Shown piece after piece: positions 3,871 to 57,888 of a stretch of DNA of 63,696 nucleotides. This DNA is from a virus (Duplodnaviria; Caudoviricetes): positions 1-63,696 of the IMG/VR virus record IMGVR_UViG_3300049167_000064. One strand, given 5' to 3'. Under the pieces are notes generated by a model. That model was not told the origin of the DNA and made no database searches. It was given only the letters and a program-made list of their open reading frames with translations. Position numbers and translations under genes: made by a program. Every line of letters begins with the position of its first letter. The stretch's first letter is position 1.

Positions 3871-3945
3871 GGTCTCGTAGCTCAGCCTGGATAGAGCACC
3901 GGACTACGAATCCGGGTGGCGGAGGTTCGAATCCTTCCGGGACCA
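3871..3945 (+). tRNA. tRNA-Arg(ACG)
   Basis: Cloverleaf, anticodon arm CCGGA-CTACGAA-TCCGG, GGTTCGAATCC T arm. Confidence 0.93.
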
Positions 3946-4018
3946 CGTCAGGAACGGCACCGAGAGCGTATAGCGGTCGGGGTGCCCCGGGGCAGGGGTG
4001 ATGCGGTTCGCCTGCCGA

Positions 4019-4100
4019 CGTCGCGCGGTGTGAGGCAGTACACGCGCGCCGAAGAGCACACCCGGCGGTGTAATCGTGGGTTCAAATCCCACCGCGACGT
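4019..4100 (+). ncRNA. Atypical tRNA / pseudo-tRNA with 11-nt anticodon loop
   Basis: Acceptor CGTCGCG/CGCGACG, T arm GTGGG-TTCAAAT-CCCAC, anticodon stem CGCCG/CGGCG around AAGAGCACACC. Confidence 0.65.
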
Positions 4101-4103
4101 CAA

Positions 4104-4175
4104 GCCCCTGTAGCTCAGCGGAAGAGCGGCGTCCTCGTAAGACGCGGGTCACAGGTTCGAATCCTGTTGGGGGCT
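4104..4175 (+). tRNA. tRNA-Thr(CGT)
   Basis: Cloverleaf, GCGTC-CTCGTAA-GACGC anticodon arm. Confidence 0.93.
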
Positions 4176-4270
4176 CTGCTGTGGCGGTGCCCTGGGGCAG
4201 ACCGGGAGCTGCATAGAGGTCGTGGCCTAGCGGCGCGACGGCCGACACCCGGGCCTCACGGTCCGGACGA

Positions 4271-4341
4271 ATGGGCGTAGCTCAGTGGTAGAGCAGCGGT
4301 CTCCAAAACCGCCCGCGGAGGTTCGATTCCTCCCGCCTGTG
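4271..4341 (+). tRNA. tRNA-Trp(CCA)
   Basis: Cloverleaf, GCGGT-CTCCAAA-ACCGC anticodon arm. Confidence 0.92.
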
Positions 4342-4450
4342 CTTTCCGACGCTGACGCCTCCGCTCCGGAGGTCGGGTGAGCCTGATGCCTGTCACGAGG
4401 CGGACGGCGGGCCGAAGCGGTGCGTGACGCCGTGGAGGAAGGCAGCACAT

Positions 4451-4522
4451 TCCCCGTTGGTCCAATTGGCAGGACGCCAGGCTCTGGACCTGGAGGACGA
4501 GGTTCGAATCCTTGACGGGGAG
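4451..4522 (+). tRNA. tRNA-Gln(CTG)
   Basis: Cloverleaf, CCAGG-CTCTGGA-CCTGG anticodon arm. Confidence 0.92.
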
Positions 4523-4595
4523 CCGGTCGGGCGGTGTGTCCCAAGTCCGCAGGAGAAGAGCTCCGGAGTGCCGTAAAGGAGCGACCCGACCACAC

Positions 4596-4668
4596 CGGGA
4601 CGTAGTTCAGAGGTCAGAGCACCCGCTTTGGGAGCGGGGAGTCGGAGGTTCGAATCCTCCCGTCCCGA
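4596..4668 (+). tRNA. tRNA-Pro(TGG)
   Basis: Cloverleaf, CCCGC-TTTGGGA-GCGGG anticodon arm. Confidence 0.92.
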
Positions 4669-4762
4669 CAAACGACGAGCGCCCCCGAAGCTGTACACAT
4701 CGGGGGAGCTCAGTTCTTTACTCTACGCCCCGACGTCCGGGGTCCTACCCCCTGGAGTCAAA

Positions 4763-8355: not shown

Positions 8356-10065
8356 ATGCCGCACGTAACCGTGCGCGCCCCCGGTCACGACCGCTCCCGC
8401 TCTCTCGGGTGGATGGCGGTTGCGTGGATGGAGTATTTCGTCGTGCACGGCCCTGGCGACGTTCAGGGCGAACCGGTGCGCCACGGTGACGAGTACACAG
8501 GCTTCGTCGTCGACTGCTACGCGGTTGACGATCACGCCGGAAAGATGCTCTACGACTCAGCGTTCTTCTCCCGCCCGAAGGGCTGCGACAAGAGCGGTCT
8601 GGGCGCCCGCATCGGCCTTTTCGAAGCCTTTGGACCGTGCCGCTTCGCCGGCTGGGCTGAGGGCGGGGAGGTCTACCGCGATCCGTGGGGGCTGGGCTTC
8701 GAGTACGTCTACGAACCTGGCGAACCCATGGGCCGCCCGGTGCGCGTTCCTTACCTCCGCATCATGGCGACGGAGGAAGGCCAGACGGGCAACGTCTACG
8801 ACACCATTTACTTCAACCTGACCGACGAGGCGTCGCTACTGAGCAGCATTCCGGGCGTTGACCCGGGGCTGACGAAGATCAACCTTCCCGACGGCGGAGA
8901 GATCACTCCGTCGACCGCCTCGTCCTCGTCGAAGGACGGCGGTAAAGAGACGTGGGTCTGTTTCGACGAGACCCACCTTTACAACACGCCAGAACTGCGG
9001 CGCATGTACGCCACGGTGACCCGTAACCTCCGCAAGAGGAAGAAGGGCGCCGGCACGTGGTATCTCGAGACAACCACGATGTTCGCCCCGGGCCAGGACT
9101 CCGTAGCTGAACGCACCTACGAAGAGGCCGAAGCGATCCGCGAGGGTAAGAAGAAGCGCGGTCGTGCACGTCTCATGTACGACCATCGCTACGGCGTCTG
9201 CACAGACCTGAAGAACGAGGACGCTCTCCGCGCAGCCCTGCGTGACGCCTACGGCGACGCGATGGAGTGGATCGACGAAGACACGCTCGTCGACGACTTC
9301 TACGACCTGCGTAACGACTCCGCGGACGGTAAGCGCTACTTCCTGAACTCCCGTACGTCGACCTCCGATTCATGGATGGAGCCGGACGCGTGGGAGGTCT
9401 GCCGACGGCCGGAAGAGATAGCAGACGGGGACCTCGTCACACTCGGCTTCGACGGCTCCATCCGGGACGACTCGACGGCACTGACGGTCTGCCGCGTCTC
9501 TGATGGACACCTTCAGCTCCTGGGTTGCTGGGAGAAGCCGGAAGGCCACGAGGGCGAAGGCTGGCAAGTCGACCGCGAAGCCGTCGATGCAGCTGTAGGC
9601 CGCGCGTTTGAGCGCTACGAGGTCTGCGGCTTCTACGCCGACCCGCCTCACTGGCAGGACTACGTAGACCGATGGACGTCTCTCCACGGTGAAGACCTTC
9701 AGGTTCGCGCTACGCAGGCGCGCCCGCTCGAGTGGTGGACCAATCGTCCGACGGCCATGGAGCACGCGCTAGACCGCTTCGTGGAGGCCGTCGACGACAA
9801 GGCGCTGAGCTACGCCGGCACCGACAAGGCTGACGACGAAGCCGCGTTCTCGAAGCTGGGAGCGACGCTCGCGCGCCATGTGCTGAACGCGAAGCGACGT
9901 CCGATGGGCCGCAATCACATGGGCATCGGCAAGGAACACCCGAAGTCGCCGCGCAAGATCGACGCCGCCATGAGCGCCGTACTCGCCTACGAGTGCCGCG
10001 CGGATGCCGTCGCGGCCGGAATCACTAAGCGGAAGAAGCGCTCTTCCAAGCTCGTAGCCTTCTGA
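8356..10065 (+). CDS. terL: Terminase large subunit
   Basis: SRPKGCDKS Walker A variant, FDETH, LGFDGS..DDST, KIDAA nuclease motifs. Confidence 0.95.
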   Translation: MPHVTVRAPGHDRSRSLGWMAVAWMEYFVVHGPGDVQGEPVRHGDEYTGFVVDCYAVDDHAGKMLYDSAFFSRPKGCDKSGLGARIGLFEAFGPCRFAGWAEGGEVYRDPWGLGFEYVYEPGEPMGRPVRVPYLRIMATEEGQTGNVYDTIYFNLTDEASLLSSIPGVDPGLTKINLPDGGEITPSTASSSSKDGGKETWVCFDETHLYNTPELRRMYATVTRNLRKRKKGAGTWYLETTTMFAPGQDSVAERTYEEAEAIREGKKKRGRARLMYDHRYGVCTDLKNEDALRAALRDAYGDAMEWIDEDTLVDDFYDLRNDSADGKRYFLNSRTSTSDSWMEPDAWEVCRRPEEIADGDLVTLGFDGSIRDDSTALTVCRVSDGHLQLLGCWEKPEGHEGEGWQVDREAVDAAVGRAFERYEVCGFYADPPHWQDYVDRWTSLHGEDLQVRATQARPLEWWTNRPTAMEHALDRFVEAVDDKALSYAGTDKADDEAAFSKLGATLARHVLNAKRRPMGRNHMGIGKEHPKSPRKIDAAMSAVLAYECRADAVAAGITKRKKRSSKLVAF

Positions 10066-52261: not shown

Positions 52262-53017
52262 ATGACCCCGACGCAGGTTACGAACGAGCTCATCATCTCG
52301 GCGCAGGGTGGAGACAGTGACGCGATGTGGCAGATCGTCGACGCCTACGAGGGCGTTCTCCGCCACGCCGTCCGCTCCGTCGCTCCCTCCGCCAATCAGG
52401 AGGACGCGGAAGACCTCCTCCAAGAGGCACGCGCGGTGCTGATCCAGCACGTCCGCGACTACCGCACCGACGGCAGTCCTGCGCAGCTGAGCACGTTCGC
52501 GCACCACACCATCCGCCGTACCGTGGCGGAGGCGTGGGTCCGCACTTCCTGTGCGCTGTCCGTCGACCCGACGACCGCACTTCGCGTCAAGCGTGCGCTC
52601 TGGACCACGGAGGGCGACGTCGACGGAGCGTGGATGATCGTCTCCTCCGACGCCAACTCGAAGCGCAGGCTGTCCCGGGAAGTGTTCCTCGCGACGGTTG
52701 AGGCCATGGCGGACGTGGACTGCCTGGACGCTCCGGCCGGCGAAGACGGTCTGACGCTCGCGGAGGTCATCCCGGACGCGGACTCCGACTTCACCGACCC
52801 GACGGAGCGCCGGGAGCTGGCCCGCTACCTCCTCCGCGAGATCCCGCAGCGCCAGGCATACGCGCTCCGGGCGTTCTACGGAATCGGCATGACGCAGATG
52901 CCGGACCACGACGTCGCGGCCGATCTGGAGCTGAAGCTCGTCGCTCTTCGCCAGCTGCGGGCGCGCGGCGTCAAGTACGCGCAGAAGGTTGCAGCCTCCC
53001 AGGCACTGGCTGCGTGA
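52262..53017 (+). CDS. Sigma-70 family RNA polymerase sigma factor
   Basis: AQGGD..A, DAEDLLQEA (region 2), LDAP, region 4 HTH-like C-terminus. Confidence 0.82.
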   Translation: MTPTQVTNELIISAQGGDSDAMWQIVDAYEGVLRHAVRSVAPSANQEDAEDLLQEARAVLIQHVRDYRTDGSPAQLSTFAHHTIRRTVAEAWVRTSCALSVDPTTALRVKRALWTTEGDVDGAWMIVSSDANSKRRLSREVFLATVEAMADVDCLDAPAGEDGLTLAEVIPDADSDFTDPTERRELARYLLREIPQRQAYALRAFYGIGMTQMPDHDVAADLELKLVALRQLRARGVKYAQKVAASQALAA

Positions 53018-54292: not shown

Positions 54293-54333
54293 GACGACAG
54301 GGCCCGGGGCGCTTGCTCCGGGCCCTTCGTGTT

Positions 54334-54394
54334 GCTCCGCTAGTCGACTAGCGGAGCTAGGGGGTTGTGTCGGCCGACCAATGTGTGTCATAGT
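54334..54394 (+). promoter_or_regulatory. 24-bp palindrome plus class A promoter
   Basis: GCTCCGCTAGTCGACTAGCGGAGC, then TTGTGT-N18-CATAGT with GTCGGCCGAC box. Confidence 0.75.
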
Positions 54395-54431
54395 GGAGAT
54401 CCGCCAGGGACTAACGGAACTGGCGGAACAA

Positions 54432-54641
54432 CTCAACAGGGAGCGGCAGCAAGGCGAGAACGACTCTGGTGGAGTCAAGAGGCGCCCCGTAAGGGAGACG
54501 TCGCAACGGCGTGCTGGGTAAGAACCTTGGCAGTCACGGTGACCCGTAGCCCATACGGTAGGGCAGGGTGTGGCTGGAGGGATGGATACTCCAAACCAGG
54601 CTGAGGACATGAATCGCTAAGCACCACCGCTCCCTGTTGGG
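54432..54641 (+). ncRNA. Candidate ~210-nt structured RNA
   Basis: 15-bp closing helix 54432-54446/54627-54641 enclosing several hairpins. Confidence 0.65.
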
Positions 54642-54676
54642 GACTCCACGGACAGGCCGAGACGAGGGAGCCGTCA

Positions 54677-55051
54677 ATGAGCTACCAGCGGGCGCACCGC
54701 TACTGCGGCGGAAAGGGTGAGGTGCCCCGGGCGTCCGGTATCCCTGGCTTCTGCTTCGCATGCAACGGGACCGGAAAGATCACCGTGTACACCGCAGCCG
54801 AGAAGGCTGTTCGACAGGCTGAACGTAGCCGGTGGGACTCCACCCGAGAGCTGGTGCGGTCCCACGCCCGGAAGATCACGGCCCCTGACGGTGTGCCTTC
54901 CCTGACGTTCTCGCTTGACGTCCGCGCCGGCTTCGAGACGCTGGCCGAACGAGAGCCAGACCGCTTGGAGAAGTTGTACGCCTCGTTGGACGCTGGCCGT
55001 ATCGACGACGTCGTTTATGCCCTGTACGAGTACCGCAAGGGTCACGCGTAG
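54677..55051 (+). CDS. Hypothetical protein with DnaJ-like CxxCxGxG motif
   Basis: GGGAG RBS; CFACNGTG. Confidence 0.75.
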   Translation: MSYQRAHRYCGGKGEVPRASGIPGFCFACNGTGKITVYTAAEKAVRQAERSRWDSTRELVRSHARKITAPDGVPSLTFSLDVRAGFETLAEREPDRLEKLYASLDAGRIDDVVYALYEYRKGHA

Positions 55052-55112
55052 CCGAAACGCCCTCCGGGGCGTCGGGTGAGGAATGGTCTCCCACCCCTGA
55101 CGAGGCAGACCA
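55051..55112 (+). ncRNA. Type II hammerhead ribozyme 1 (predicted cleavage after C55073)
   Basis: GCC-GAAAC-stem III-GTC-stem I-CTGACGA-GGC; loop TGGTCT pairs with downstream AGACCA. Confidence 0.88.
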
Positions 55113-55123
55113 CTGGAGGAGAG

Positions 55124-55288
55124 ATGAAGGTCAAGGCGATGAAGCGGACGTTCCTCCGGACGCACCGGTTCGGGATGTTGCGCCAGGCGGACGAGAAGCG
55201 CAGGGCCGGCGCGGAGCGCAACGTCCGCAGCCCGCAGGGGCGGGAGCTGATCGCGTCGAACATGGTCTACCGCAAGCGCTACGCGTAG
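55124..55288 (+). CDS. Small basic protein (54 aa) between ribozymes
   Basis: GGAGGAGAG-ATG. Confidence 0.7.
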   Translation: MKVKAMKRTFLRTHRFGMLRQADEKRRAGAERNVRSPQGRELIASNMVYRKRYA

Positions 55289-55350
55289 CCGAAACGCCCT
55301 CCGGGGCGTCGCGCGGGAGATGGCCTCCCGCCCCTGATGAGGCAGGCCGT
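55288..55350 (+). ncRNA. Type II hammerhead ribozyme 2 (predicted cleavage after C55310)
   Basis: GCC-GAAAC-stem III-GTC-stem I-CTGATGA-GGC; loop ATGGCCT pairs with AGGCCGT. Confidence 0.88.
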
Positions 55351-55360
55351 AGGAGGAGAG

Positions 55361-55657
55361 ATGGGAGCAACACCGAGAATGACGGCACTGGAGTCGGCAC
55401 GCGTGCAGAAGATCATGGATGGCGTCCGAGGCATTCCGGACCCTGACCACGAGCACGACCTCAACCCCGAGCACGCCGTCTTCGACGCTGACGGCGCGGT
55501 GTTGCAGCGCGGCATCTCTGACGAGTACGCCGCGCAGGACGCCGCCGAGACCTGGCGCACGACCTACTACCGTCCCGACGCCTGGTCCGGAGAACTCTGC
55601 AACGACTACCGCGACCACCCGCGCGAGGTCTGCGGCGAGCATCACGAACTTGGGTAG
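55361..55657 (+). CDS. Hypothetical protein (98 aa)
   Basis: GGAGGAGAG-ATG. Confidence 0.7.
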   Translation: MGATPRMTALESARVQKIMDGVRGIPDPDHEHDLNPEHAVFDADGAVLQRGISDEYAAQDAAETWRTTYYRPDAWSGELCNDYRDHPREVCGEHHELG

Positions 55658-55665
55658 CGAAGTCC

Positions 55666-55742
55666 GCCCCGCTACGGCATCGCCCGATCTACCCGGCACC
55701 CCCAGTGCCGGCGGGCGCGCGGTTCGAATCCGCGGCGGGGTA
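55666..55742 (+). ncRNA. D-armless tRNA-like element
   Basis: Acceptor GCCCCGC/GCGGGGT, U8-A9, T arm CGCGG-TTCGAAT-CCGCG. Confidence 0.7.
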
Positions 55743-55775
55743 CTCGAAGCACCATCCATCGACGGAGAGGACGTC

Positions 55776-57038: not shown

Positions 57039-57069
57039 GTTGTGTCGGCCGACACAACTGTGTCATAGT
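57039..57069 (+). promoter_or_regulatory. Class A promoter with perfect 20-bp operator
   Basis: GTTGTGTCGGCCGACACAAC; TTGTGT-N18-CATAGT. Confidence 0.8.
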
Positions 57070-57115
57070 GAGCCACGCCAGGGACTTACGGAAGTCCAAA
57101 GGAAGAGGAGACATC

Positions 57116-57793: not shown

Positions 57794-57854
57794 TCGACTA
57801 GCGGAAGTTGTCGGCCGATGCCTCTTGTGTCGGCCGACACAGCTATGTCATAGT
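57787..57854 (+). promoter_or_regulatory. Palindrome plus class A promoter
   Basis: CCGCTAGTCGACTAGCGG; TTGTGT(57825)-N18-CATAGT. Confidence 0.78.
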
Positions 57855-57888
57855 GAGGGCAACGCAAGGGACTGACGGAGGAGAGACC

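Follow-up and report, generated by a model that had tools for sequence, protein, structure and literature searches.

Two pseudoknotted type II hammerhead ribozymes at gene borders of an uncultured phage, with a probable role in cutting its messenger RNA

Two sequences of the pseudoknotted type II hammerhead ribozyme class lie on the plus strand of IMGVR_UViG_3300049167_000064, a complete virus record of 63,696 bases (CheckV 100%) that we refer to, in its whole length, as the window, and each of them exactly fills one intergenic gap. On the evidence of sequence and predicted structure, the first copy (HH1, 55050–55114) and the second (HH2, 55287–55351) are genuine type II hammerheads of the bacterial and phage class RF02276; every sequence and structure feature of the pseudoknotted type II class is present, and cleavage is predicted for both. 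We propose that HH1 and HH2 probably cut a polycistronic phage mRNA co-transcriptionally at the borders of its genes.

When the entire window was scanned against Rfam with cmscan, HH1 and HH2 matched the Hammerhead_II model (RF02276) over its full length, model positions 1–66 of 66, with 50.0 bits (E 2.8e-07) and 47.1 bits (E 1.6e-06), respectively. Both copies, recognised in a preliminary description of the locus from its letters alone, are thus above the gathering score of 37 bits. The RF02276 search of the full 63.7-kb record found no copies beyond these two, and the identical search matched 0 of 14 control genomes. Scored with R1, a covariance model of our own built from 33 copies, HH1 and HH2 reached 76.4 and 78.4 bits; the MAFFT alignment A2, in which the window copies were out of register in stem I, served only as the seed of this model.

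The elements follow the same order in both copies, namely the 5′ strand of stem II, GAAA, the stem III hairpin, GUC, the stem I hairpin, CUGANGA and the 3′ strand of stem II. Checked base by base, the complete cores and the stem II and stem III strands that had been described beforehand were all found in their places. Stem II consists of 3 base pairs (bp), GCC with GGC, at 55051–55053 and 55104–55106 in HH1 and at 55288–55290 and 55341–55343 in HH2, and is followed by GAAA at 55054–55057 and 55291–55294. Stem III, ACGCCC/GGGCGU, has 6 bp, a UCCG loop and an A-U closing pair and is the same in HH1 and HH2. Both copies carry GUC, in which C17 is base 55073 in HH1 and base 55310 in HH2, and the predicted cut sites are between 55073 and 55074 and between 55310 and 55311. 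The core reads CUGACGA in HH1 (55097–55103) and CUGAUGA in HH2 (55334–55340). With the core definition taken from the Methods of PMC3088659, C3 U4 G5 A6 N7 G8 A9, G12 A13 A14, A15.1-U16.1 and H17 are present in both copies, as are the 10.1-11.1 G-C, 1.1-2.1 G-C and 15.1-16.1 A-U pairs. Stem I of HH1, GGGUG(A)GG/CCCACCC, has 7 bp and one bulged A, and that of HH2 has 6 bp and one C·C mismatch at its second pair (position 1.2/2.2).

In each copy a pseudoknot joins loop I to the bases that start directly after stem II, with more than the 4 bp by which pseudoknots are recognised in the family: UGGUCU (55084–55089) pairs with AGACCA (55107–55112) over 6 bp in HH1, and AUGGCCU (55320–55326) with AGGCCGU (55344–55350) over 7 bp, including one G·U, in HH2. 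The compensatory changes that the preliminary description had reported between the copies are borne out, and there are two of them. One is in stem I, where U-A at position 4/20 of HH1 is C-G in HH2, and one is in the pseudoknot, where U-A at 55087/55109 is C-G at 55324/55346.

That such changes reflect selection on structure, as had been argued from the two copies, is more strongly supported across the family. The exact 21-base string of stem III was found in at least 119 IMG/VR contigs, and the comparison sample was selected by that string. Among 122 instances, the window included, 103 parse as type II with a tolerant parser, which replaced a stricter one that had accepted 66 of the 122; the other 19 are type I or truncated. 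The R1 search gave 184 matches in 100 sources, followed by 42 matches in 25 further sources. Covariation was counted in the best 150 matches, which represent 129 distinct rows from IMG/VR contigs and the window. Paired cells make up 93.6% of these rows versus 72.0% in shuffles and 33–44% with slid partners, and double changes occur at 18 of the 21 pairs, numbers that lean towards structure for the nested helices, which were fitted by R1. The pseudoknot is absent from the model, and its numbers do not lean in this way: it is 79% paired, with double changes at five of its six pairs. Among the matches listed, 31 distinct sequences form the helix between loop and tail, and the pseudoknot averages 5.0 bp with its own tail versus 3.9 bp with tails from other copies, a weak control in that many tails share AGGCC or AGACC. 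The covariation in these sequences supports all four helices. Recurrent variants of the core were also seen in phage type II hammerheads, with CCGAUGA in place of CUGAUGA or with an extra U between A9 and stem II (CUGAYGA-U-GGC). Contigs with core variants include L031, L034, L042, L043, L053, L077, L096, L112 and L027 among others (these and other L-numbers denote the phage sequences compared), and the extra-U form is present in many.

Upstream of HH1 lies an open reading frame (ORF) of 124 amino acids (aa) on the plus strand (54677–55051), without a family match, whose TAG stop codon (55049–55051) supplies the first base of stem II of HH1. A motif resembling a Shine-Dalgarno (SD) sequence, GGAGGAGAG (55115–55123, plus strand), starts 2 nucleotides (nt) after the HH1 pseudoknot and directly precedes the ATG at 55124 of a basic 54-aa ORF (MKVKAMKRTFLRTHRFG..., 55124–55288, plus strand). 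This ORF lies between the two ribozymes, and its TAG (55286–55288) overlaps stem II of HH2. The same SD-like GGAGGAGAG recurs at 55352–55360 (plus strand), 1 nt after the HH2 pseudoknot and directly before the ATG at 55361 of a downstream ORF of 98 aa (55361–55657, plus strand), again without a family match, which occupies the slot between HH2 and a tRNA-like element. The earlier observation that the pseudoknot ends beside a ribosome-binding site therefore holds for both copies. The word tandem, used of them beforehand, needs correcting: they are two ribozymes on one strand that flank an ORF and lie 237 nt apart from start to start, not a head-to-tail pair.

Among the matches listed, the position of the window copies between stop and start codons can be compared with that of 85 unique type II copies. 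The stop codon of the upstream ORF is at most 21 nt from stem II in 82 of the 85 and overlaps stem II in 58 of those 82. A start codon follows 6–54 nt past stem II (median 23) in 84 copies, 72 of which have an SD-like motif. The layout of the window, with the stop codon in stem II and the start codon just downstream, is typical of the type II family. Clusters recur as well, with 2–10 copies in 23 of 87 sources, always on one strand and spaced by 208–2368 nt; the 237 nt of the window is the third smallest of 63 spacings. Dense one-strand arrays of type II copies were noted in L037, L026, L039, L065, L061, L056, L044, L090 and L067, with 13 model matches (E ≤ 5.4e-05) within about 9 kb of L037, 8–10 each in L026 and L039, and about one ribozyme per gene. 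These arrays far exceed the triple clusters described in the text of PMC3088659.

The gene between the ribozymes appears to be real, because homologues of the 54-aa ORF occur in five related phage contigs at 74–79% identity and differ from it by many synonymous codons (8–14 synonymous and 11–14 non-synonymous codon differences per 52 codons). Neither the 54-aa nor the 98-aa protein had a match in Pfam, PHROG or the ESM Atlas. Searches of a phage collection with the nucleotides 54600–55700 and with the 124-aa protein gave no match.

We infer cleavage in the window phage, co-transcription of the genes and effects on stability and translation, and together these would form the following course of events. 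HH1 and HH2 would be transcribed from the plus strand within a polycistronic phage mRNA, and each would fold as the RNA emerges, forming stem III with its UCCG loop, stem I, the 3-bp stem II and a pseudoknot that would hold stems I and II parallel. Self-cutting after C17 at the two predicted sites would place the 124-aa, 54-aa and 98-aa genes on separate RNAs and release a 237-nt RNA (55074–55310) with the 54-aa gene. The piece upstream of a cut would end in a 2′,3′-cyclic phosphate within the stem III hairpin, 22 nt past the stop codon; the piece downstream would open with a 5′-hydroxyl, the stem I hairpin and the pseudoknot, with a free GGAGG 1–2 nt further on. The benefit would be an mRNA of its own for each small gene, whose ends would be structured and protected and whose ribosome-binding site would be insulated, so that neither stability nor translation would depend on neighbouring genes. 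The SD is unpaired in the minimum free energy (MFE) folds of both predicted 3′ cleavage products. According to the text of PMC3088659, cleavage of clustered hammerheads that flank prophage genes takes place both in vitro and in vivo, and at 0.5 mM Mg it is fast only with the pseudoknot. Three type II hammerheads are described as active in cells of Desulfovibrio vulgaris (PMC8782182), and a review names the processing of polycistronic transcripts as a suggested, unproven role of bacterial and phage hammerheads (PMC6765202).

A common transcript for the two ribozymes is suggested by a promoter-like motif of 32 nt, GTTGTGTCGGCCGAC-N6-GTGTCATAGTG, which occurs three times on the plus strand (54364–54395, 57039–57070 and 57824–57855) versus 0 expected from 100 shuffles. 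Sequence similar to it lies upstream of the small-ORF homologues in L123–L125 and in Streptomyces phage Samy (OR263580.1; L126). From its sequence and recurrence the motif is probably a phage-specific promoter, perhaps served by the phage sigma factor whose gene lies upstream of the ribozymes (52262–53017). If it is a promoter, both ribozymes would be in one transcription unit of about 2.6 kb, with the motif at 54364 as its probable start and the next copy at 57039. GC-rich hairpins at 54300–54362 precede the first copy of the motif, and one of them was scored as terminator-like by a scan.

The closeness of pseudoknot and SD also admits a different role, in which the pseudoknot and stem I compete with or shield the adjacent SD, and folding or cleavage gates translation of the downstream gene, with cleavage regulated rather than constitutive. 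Among the matches listed, the first SD-like tetramer is at most 4 nt from the end of the pseudoknot in 28 of 51 pseudoknotted copies, but the gap is 6 nt or more in 20 of them. In L066 (12479–12542 and 12857–12921, minus strand) two hammerheads lie 378 nt apart, and in both the SD-like motif, 10 nt upstream of the ATG, coincides with the pseudoknot's 3′ strand, GGAGA; there, ribozyme folding and ribosome binding could compete. Strings complementary to the SD, CCUCC/UCUCC, are present in the stem I 3′ strand and in the stem III loop, and in uncleaved HH1 the SD is paired with CCCUCC from stem III in the MFE fold. The MFE folds used to look for masking of the SD could not, however, be told apart from those of shuffles. 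The alternative fold of HH1 is no better than shuffles (z −0.82) and is absent for HH2, stem III with its UCCG cap should be the first hairpin to fold as the RNA is transcribed, and the SD is left free in the folds of both cleavage products. We therefore regard a translation-coupled switch as improbable for the window, and continue with cutting at gene borders as the preferred role.

Two cuts would also create the substrates for a further fate of the RNA. The 5′-hydroxyl and 2′,3′-cyclic phosphate ends that hammerhead cleavage leaves are ligation substrates. One half of each ribozyme, 3′ from HH1 and 5′ from HH2, would stay on the 237-nt piece, and the identity of stem II (GCC/GGC) and stem III between the copies makes hybrid hammerheads possible; a re-formed hammerhead or a host RNA ligase might then circularise the excised piece, giving a closed mRNA for the 54-aa protein, or the outer fragments might be joined and the gene deleted from the message. 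Ligation of such ends is described for viroids in a review (PMC6765202), and circular or spliced products were raised as a possibility by Perreault et al. (PMC3088659), who nevertheless looked for them in clustered prophage hammerheads and, by the text of that paper (data not shown there), detected neither. An in-frame stop codon in the 237-nt piece would, moreover, deny the circle an endless reading frame, and we consider this outcome very unlikely here.

The same arrangement was then followed through related phages. Twelve contigs have the sigma factor and neighbouring genes in common with the window. At the Rfam gathering score nine of the twelve carry a hammerhead, two in L074 and one in each of the others, and L078, L082 and L092 have sub-threshold copies only. 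Scans of whole records found two copies in those of L055 and L074 and one in those of L122 and L019. The nearest cultured relative is Samy, whose sigma factor is 49.6% identical to that of the window phage and which keeps the window's order of primase, polymerase, sigma factor and exported peptidase; because of this relatedness the host of the window phage is likely to be Streptomyces.

The tRNA-like element that closes the downstream slot (55666–55743, plus strand) begins 8 nt after the stop codon of the 98-aa ORF. ARAGORN calls it "tRNA-Gly ccc" and is the sole tool to call it a tRNA; the element falls outside the tRNA family of Rfam, with no match of the model RF00005 to 55666–55743 at E ≤ 5 (10 kb searched) or E ≤ 10 (131 nt searched) and with no D arm. 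In the MFE fold an acceptor stem of 7 bp is combined with a T arm and a long anticodon-like arm, and position 33 is C in place of U. Relatives have kept the element, which shows one double change in the acceptor stem and lies at 8747–8823 in L019, 1396–1473 in L122, 1672–1750 in L123 and L124 and 9050–9125 in Samy, where it occupies an unannotated gap of 144 nt. A pattern of its long form matches 11 IMG/VR contigs. Five canonical tRNA genes (Arg-ACG, Thr-CGU, Trp-CCA, Gln-CUG and Pro-UGG) are found at 3871–4669 on the plus strand, near the left end of the window genome. The tRNA-like element weakly resembles mascRNA of MALAT1 (RF01684) in having an acceptor stem and a T arm without a normal D arm, but is not a member of that family, its 12.7 bits being non-significant where the gathering score is 42.5. 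RNase P and Z process mascRNA. The phage element is possibly a third processing site of the transcript, with a signal of the RNase P/Z type. A possible role as the core of an attP site was considered and set aside: both acceptor strands are present and conserved, and Samy is described with serine integrases.

Downstream of a hammerhead or a sub-threshold hammerhead-like copy, 13 of 17 related loci have one or two small ORFs (39–108 aa) and, after them, the tRNA-like element. L074, L118 and L048 have no such element in the stretch examined, and the sequence of L022 ends before that point. L055 repeats the layout of the window with different genes, comprising a hammerhead with the tail AGACCA-CU-GGAGG, a 91-aa gene, a second hammerhead with the tail AGGCCG-CA-GGAGGAGAG-ATG, a 53-aa gene and the tRNA-like element. 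The 54-aa gene, for its part, is bordered by two hammerheads in the window, by a tRNA-like element upstream in L019 and L122, and in L123 and L124 by a promoter-like motif with a hairpin ahead of it and the tRNA-like element behind it. That the gene is bordered by other end-defining elements in related phages fits a role of the ribozymes in defining mRNA ends.

These comparisons can also be read at the level of DNA, with the block of ribozyme, SD and ATG as a shared sequence at which phages recombine and swap accessory genes, cleavage being secondary or co-existing. A direct repeat of 96 nt with 84% identity (plus strand; left copy 55031–55126, right copy 55268–55363) lies to either side of the 54-aa gene; each copy runs from the final 19 nt of the coding sequence before it through stop codon, ribozyme and SD to the ATG. 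The order of elements recurs in L055, down to the AGACCA and AGGCCG tails, with all genes different; the slot proteins are diverse, 15 proteins from 12 genomes forming 12 families; homologues of the 54-aa gene stand in different flanks in L019 and L122–L125; and the number of hammerheads among relatives varies from 0 to 2. Possible decayed remnants of hammerheads point the same way: after the 54-aa gene homologue of L019, at about 9016–9060, apparently just the two ends of a ribozyme block are left, and Samy has at 9023–9049 an apparent hammerhead 5′ half that lacks GUC, has an altered GAAA and directly abuts the tRNA-like element. Intact cores and double changes that keep structure in stems I and II and in the pseudoknot, on the other hand, speak for selection on the RNA fold, which a recombination site would not need. 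Mosaicism of phage genes is, moreover, usual with or without ribozymes. Exchange borders, though compatible with the cutting of mRNA, thus seem to us an unlikely explanation of the elements. In the window itself, the stop codon of the 98-aa ORF is followed by TAGCGAAGTCC (55655–55665), which lies immediately ahead of the tRNA-like element, resembles the 5′ part of a hammerhead minus stem III and may be chance.

Several points weigh against the proposed cutting of mRNA at gene borders. The transcription unit, and with it co-transcription, is deduced solely from the repeated 32-nt motif. A search of sequencing runs for the window sequence listed 15 DNA runs, one of which is probably from the source sample, and no RNA run, and gives no evidence on expression either way. 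The whole-record scan of Samy found no hammerhead above threshold, from which it follows that such phages can dispense with these elements. Within the ribozymes, the C·C state at 1.2/2.2 of HH2 stem I is found in 3 of the 129 family rows, and stem I with its loop is 23 nt long in both copies, 1 nt longer than in the closest relatives; insertions near the pseudoknot can reduce the rate of cleavage by orders of magnitude (PMC3088659). The benefit of cutting, finally, had not been tested for any natural phage hammerhead according to the text of a 2019 review (PMC6765202). The rare mismatch and the extra nucleotide, like the degenerate copies in relatives (sub-threshold in L078, L082 and L092, a half copy in Samy), would also suit recent inactivation of one or both copies that still score well. 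All invariant core positions are nevertheless intact in both, both exceed the gathering score by 10–13 bits, and their compensatory differences in stem I and the pseudoknot are not a product of decay, which makes inactive relics a most improbable reading.

With cutting at gene borders kept as the probable role, the relatives point to a recurrent module that may be new, in which Samy-like phages of Streptomyces combine a hammerhead with a variable small gene and an unusual tRNA-like element. More tentatively, the succession of hammerhead, gene, hammerhead, gene and tRNA-like element in Samy/PhiC31-like phages might act as a three-signal RNA "punctuation" that delimits hypervariable slots for single genes. 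Self-cleavage and processing by RNase P/Z would then be interchangeable, each accessory gene swapped in would obtain a stable and translatable mRNA of its own, and the signals would double as exchange borders. By analogy with ardA in the Agrobacterium cluster, the slot genes could be host-takeover or anti-defence genes. The quantified overlap of type II hammerheads with stop codons and SD sites may likewise be new; it goes unmentioned in the text of PMC3088659. A keyword search of the open-access literature found no paper on this module or this overlap, and none that ties hammerheads to Streptomyces phages or to a tRNA-like partner, which is not proof of absence, and the supplement of the 2011 paper may hold similar cases.

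Two more instances in a family of thousands change little alone; what gives them value is the comparative setting. According to the text of the 2019 review (PMC6765202), the biological role of hammerheads in phages was still undefined. Related genomes offer natural "swap" experiments, in which the same 54-aa gene is bordered by hammerheads, by a tRNA-like element or by a promoter-like motif, and Samy, which can be cultivated in Streptomyces ambofaciens, has lost the ribozyme and kept the tRNA-like element. These border swaps and a cultivable relative make the effect of cutting on a flanked gene testable in a tractable host.

RiboJ, an engineered insulator made of a satellite-RNA hammerhead and a hairpin, is placed just upstream of a ribosome-binding site, where it trims variable upstream RNA and fixes the 5′ end; its likeness to HH1 and HH2 is an analogy of mechanism and not of family. 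By family, the window copies belong with the pseudoknotted type II hammerheads of RF02276 as described in PMC3088659, with which they share the topology (stems I and III capped, stem II open and of only 2–3 bp), the core, the pseudoknot directly after stem II and the intergenic setting in phages or prophages. We found no structural difference from the members described there, and HH1 and HH2 are new instances from an uncultured phage that is Samy-like and probably infects Streptomyces. Single prophage genes flanked by ribozymes were published in 2011 with activity data, and the arrangement in the window is thus of an already known kind (PMC3088659). In the prophage clusters of Agrobacterium tumefaciens (ardA region), Azorhizobium caulinodans and Clostridium scindens, single genes or small groups of genes within a polycistronic transcript are bracketed by several ribozymes of one strand, the intervening genes are variable, and all copies cleaved in vitro, those of A. 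tumefaciens also in Escherichia coli (PMC3088659). Those clusters differ in host and genes and mix hammerhead types, whereas the window has two type II copies 237 nt apart, with a tRNA-like element one gene later. Loci 2 and 3 of D. vulgaris, as reported from cyPhyRNA-seq (PMC8782182), lie in a proteobacterial prophage-like region and differ in this from the window, but resemble it in presenting a same-strand pair of type II hammerheads, about 313 nt from one another and near phage-like and hypothetical genes, and their self-cleavage was detected both in cells and in vitro.

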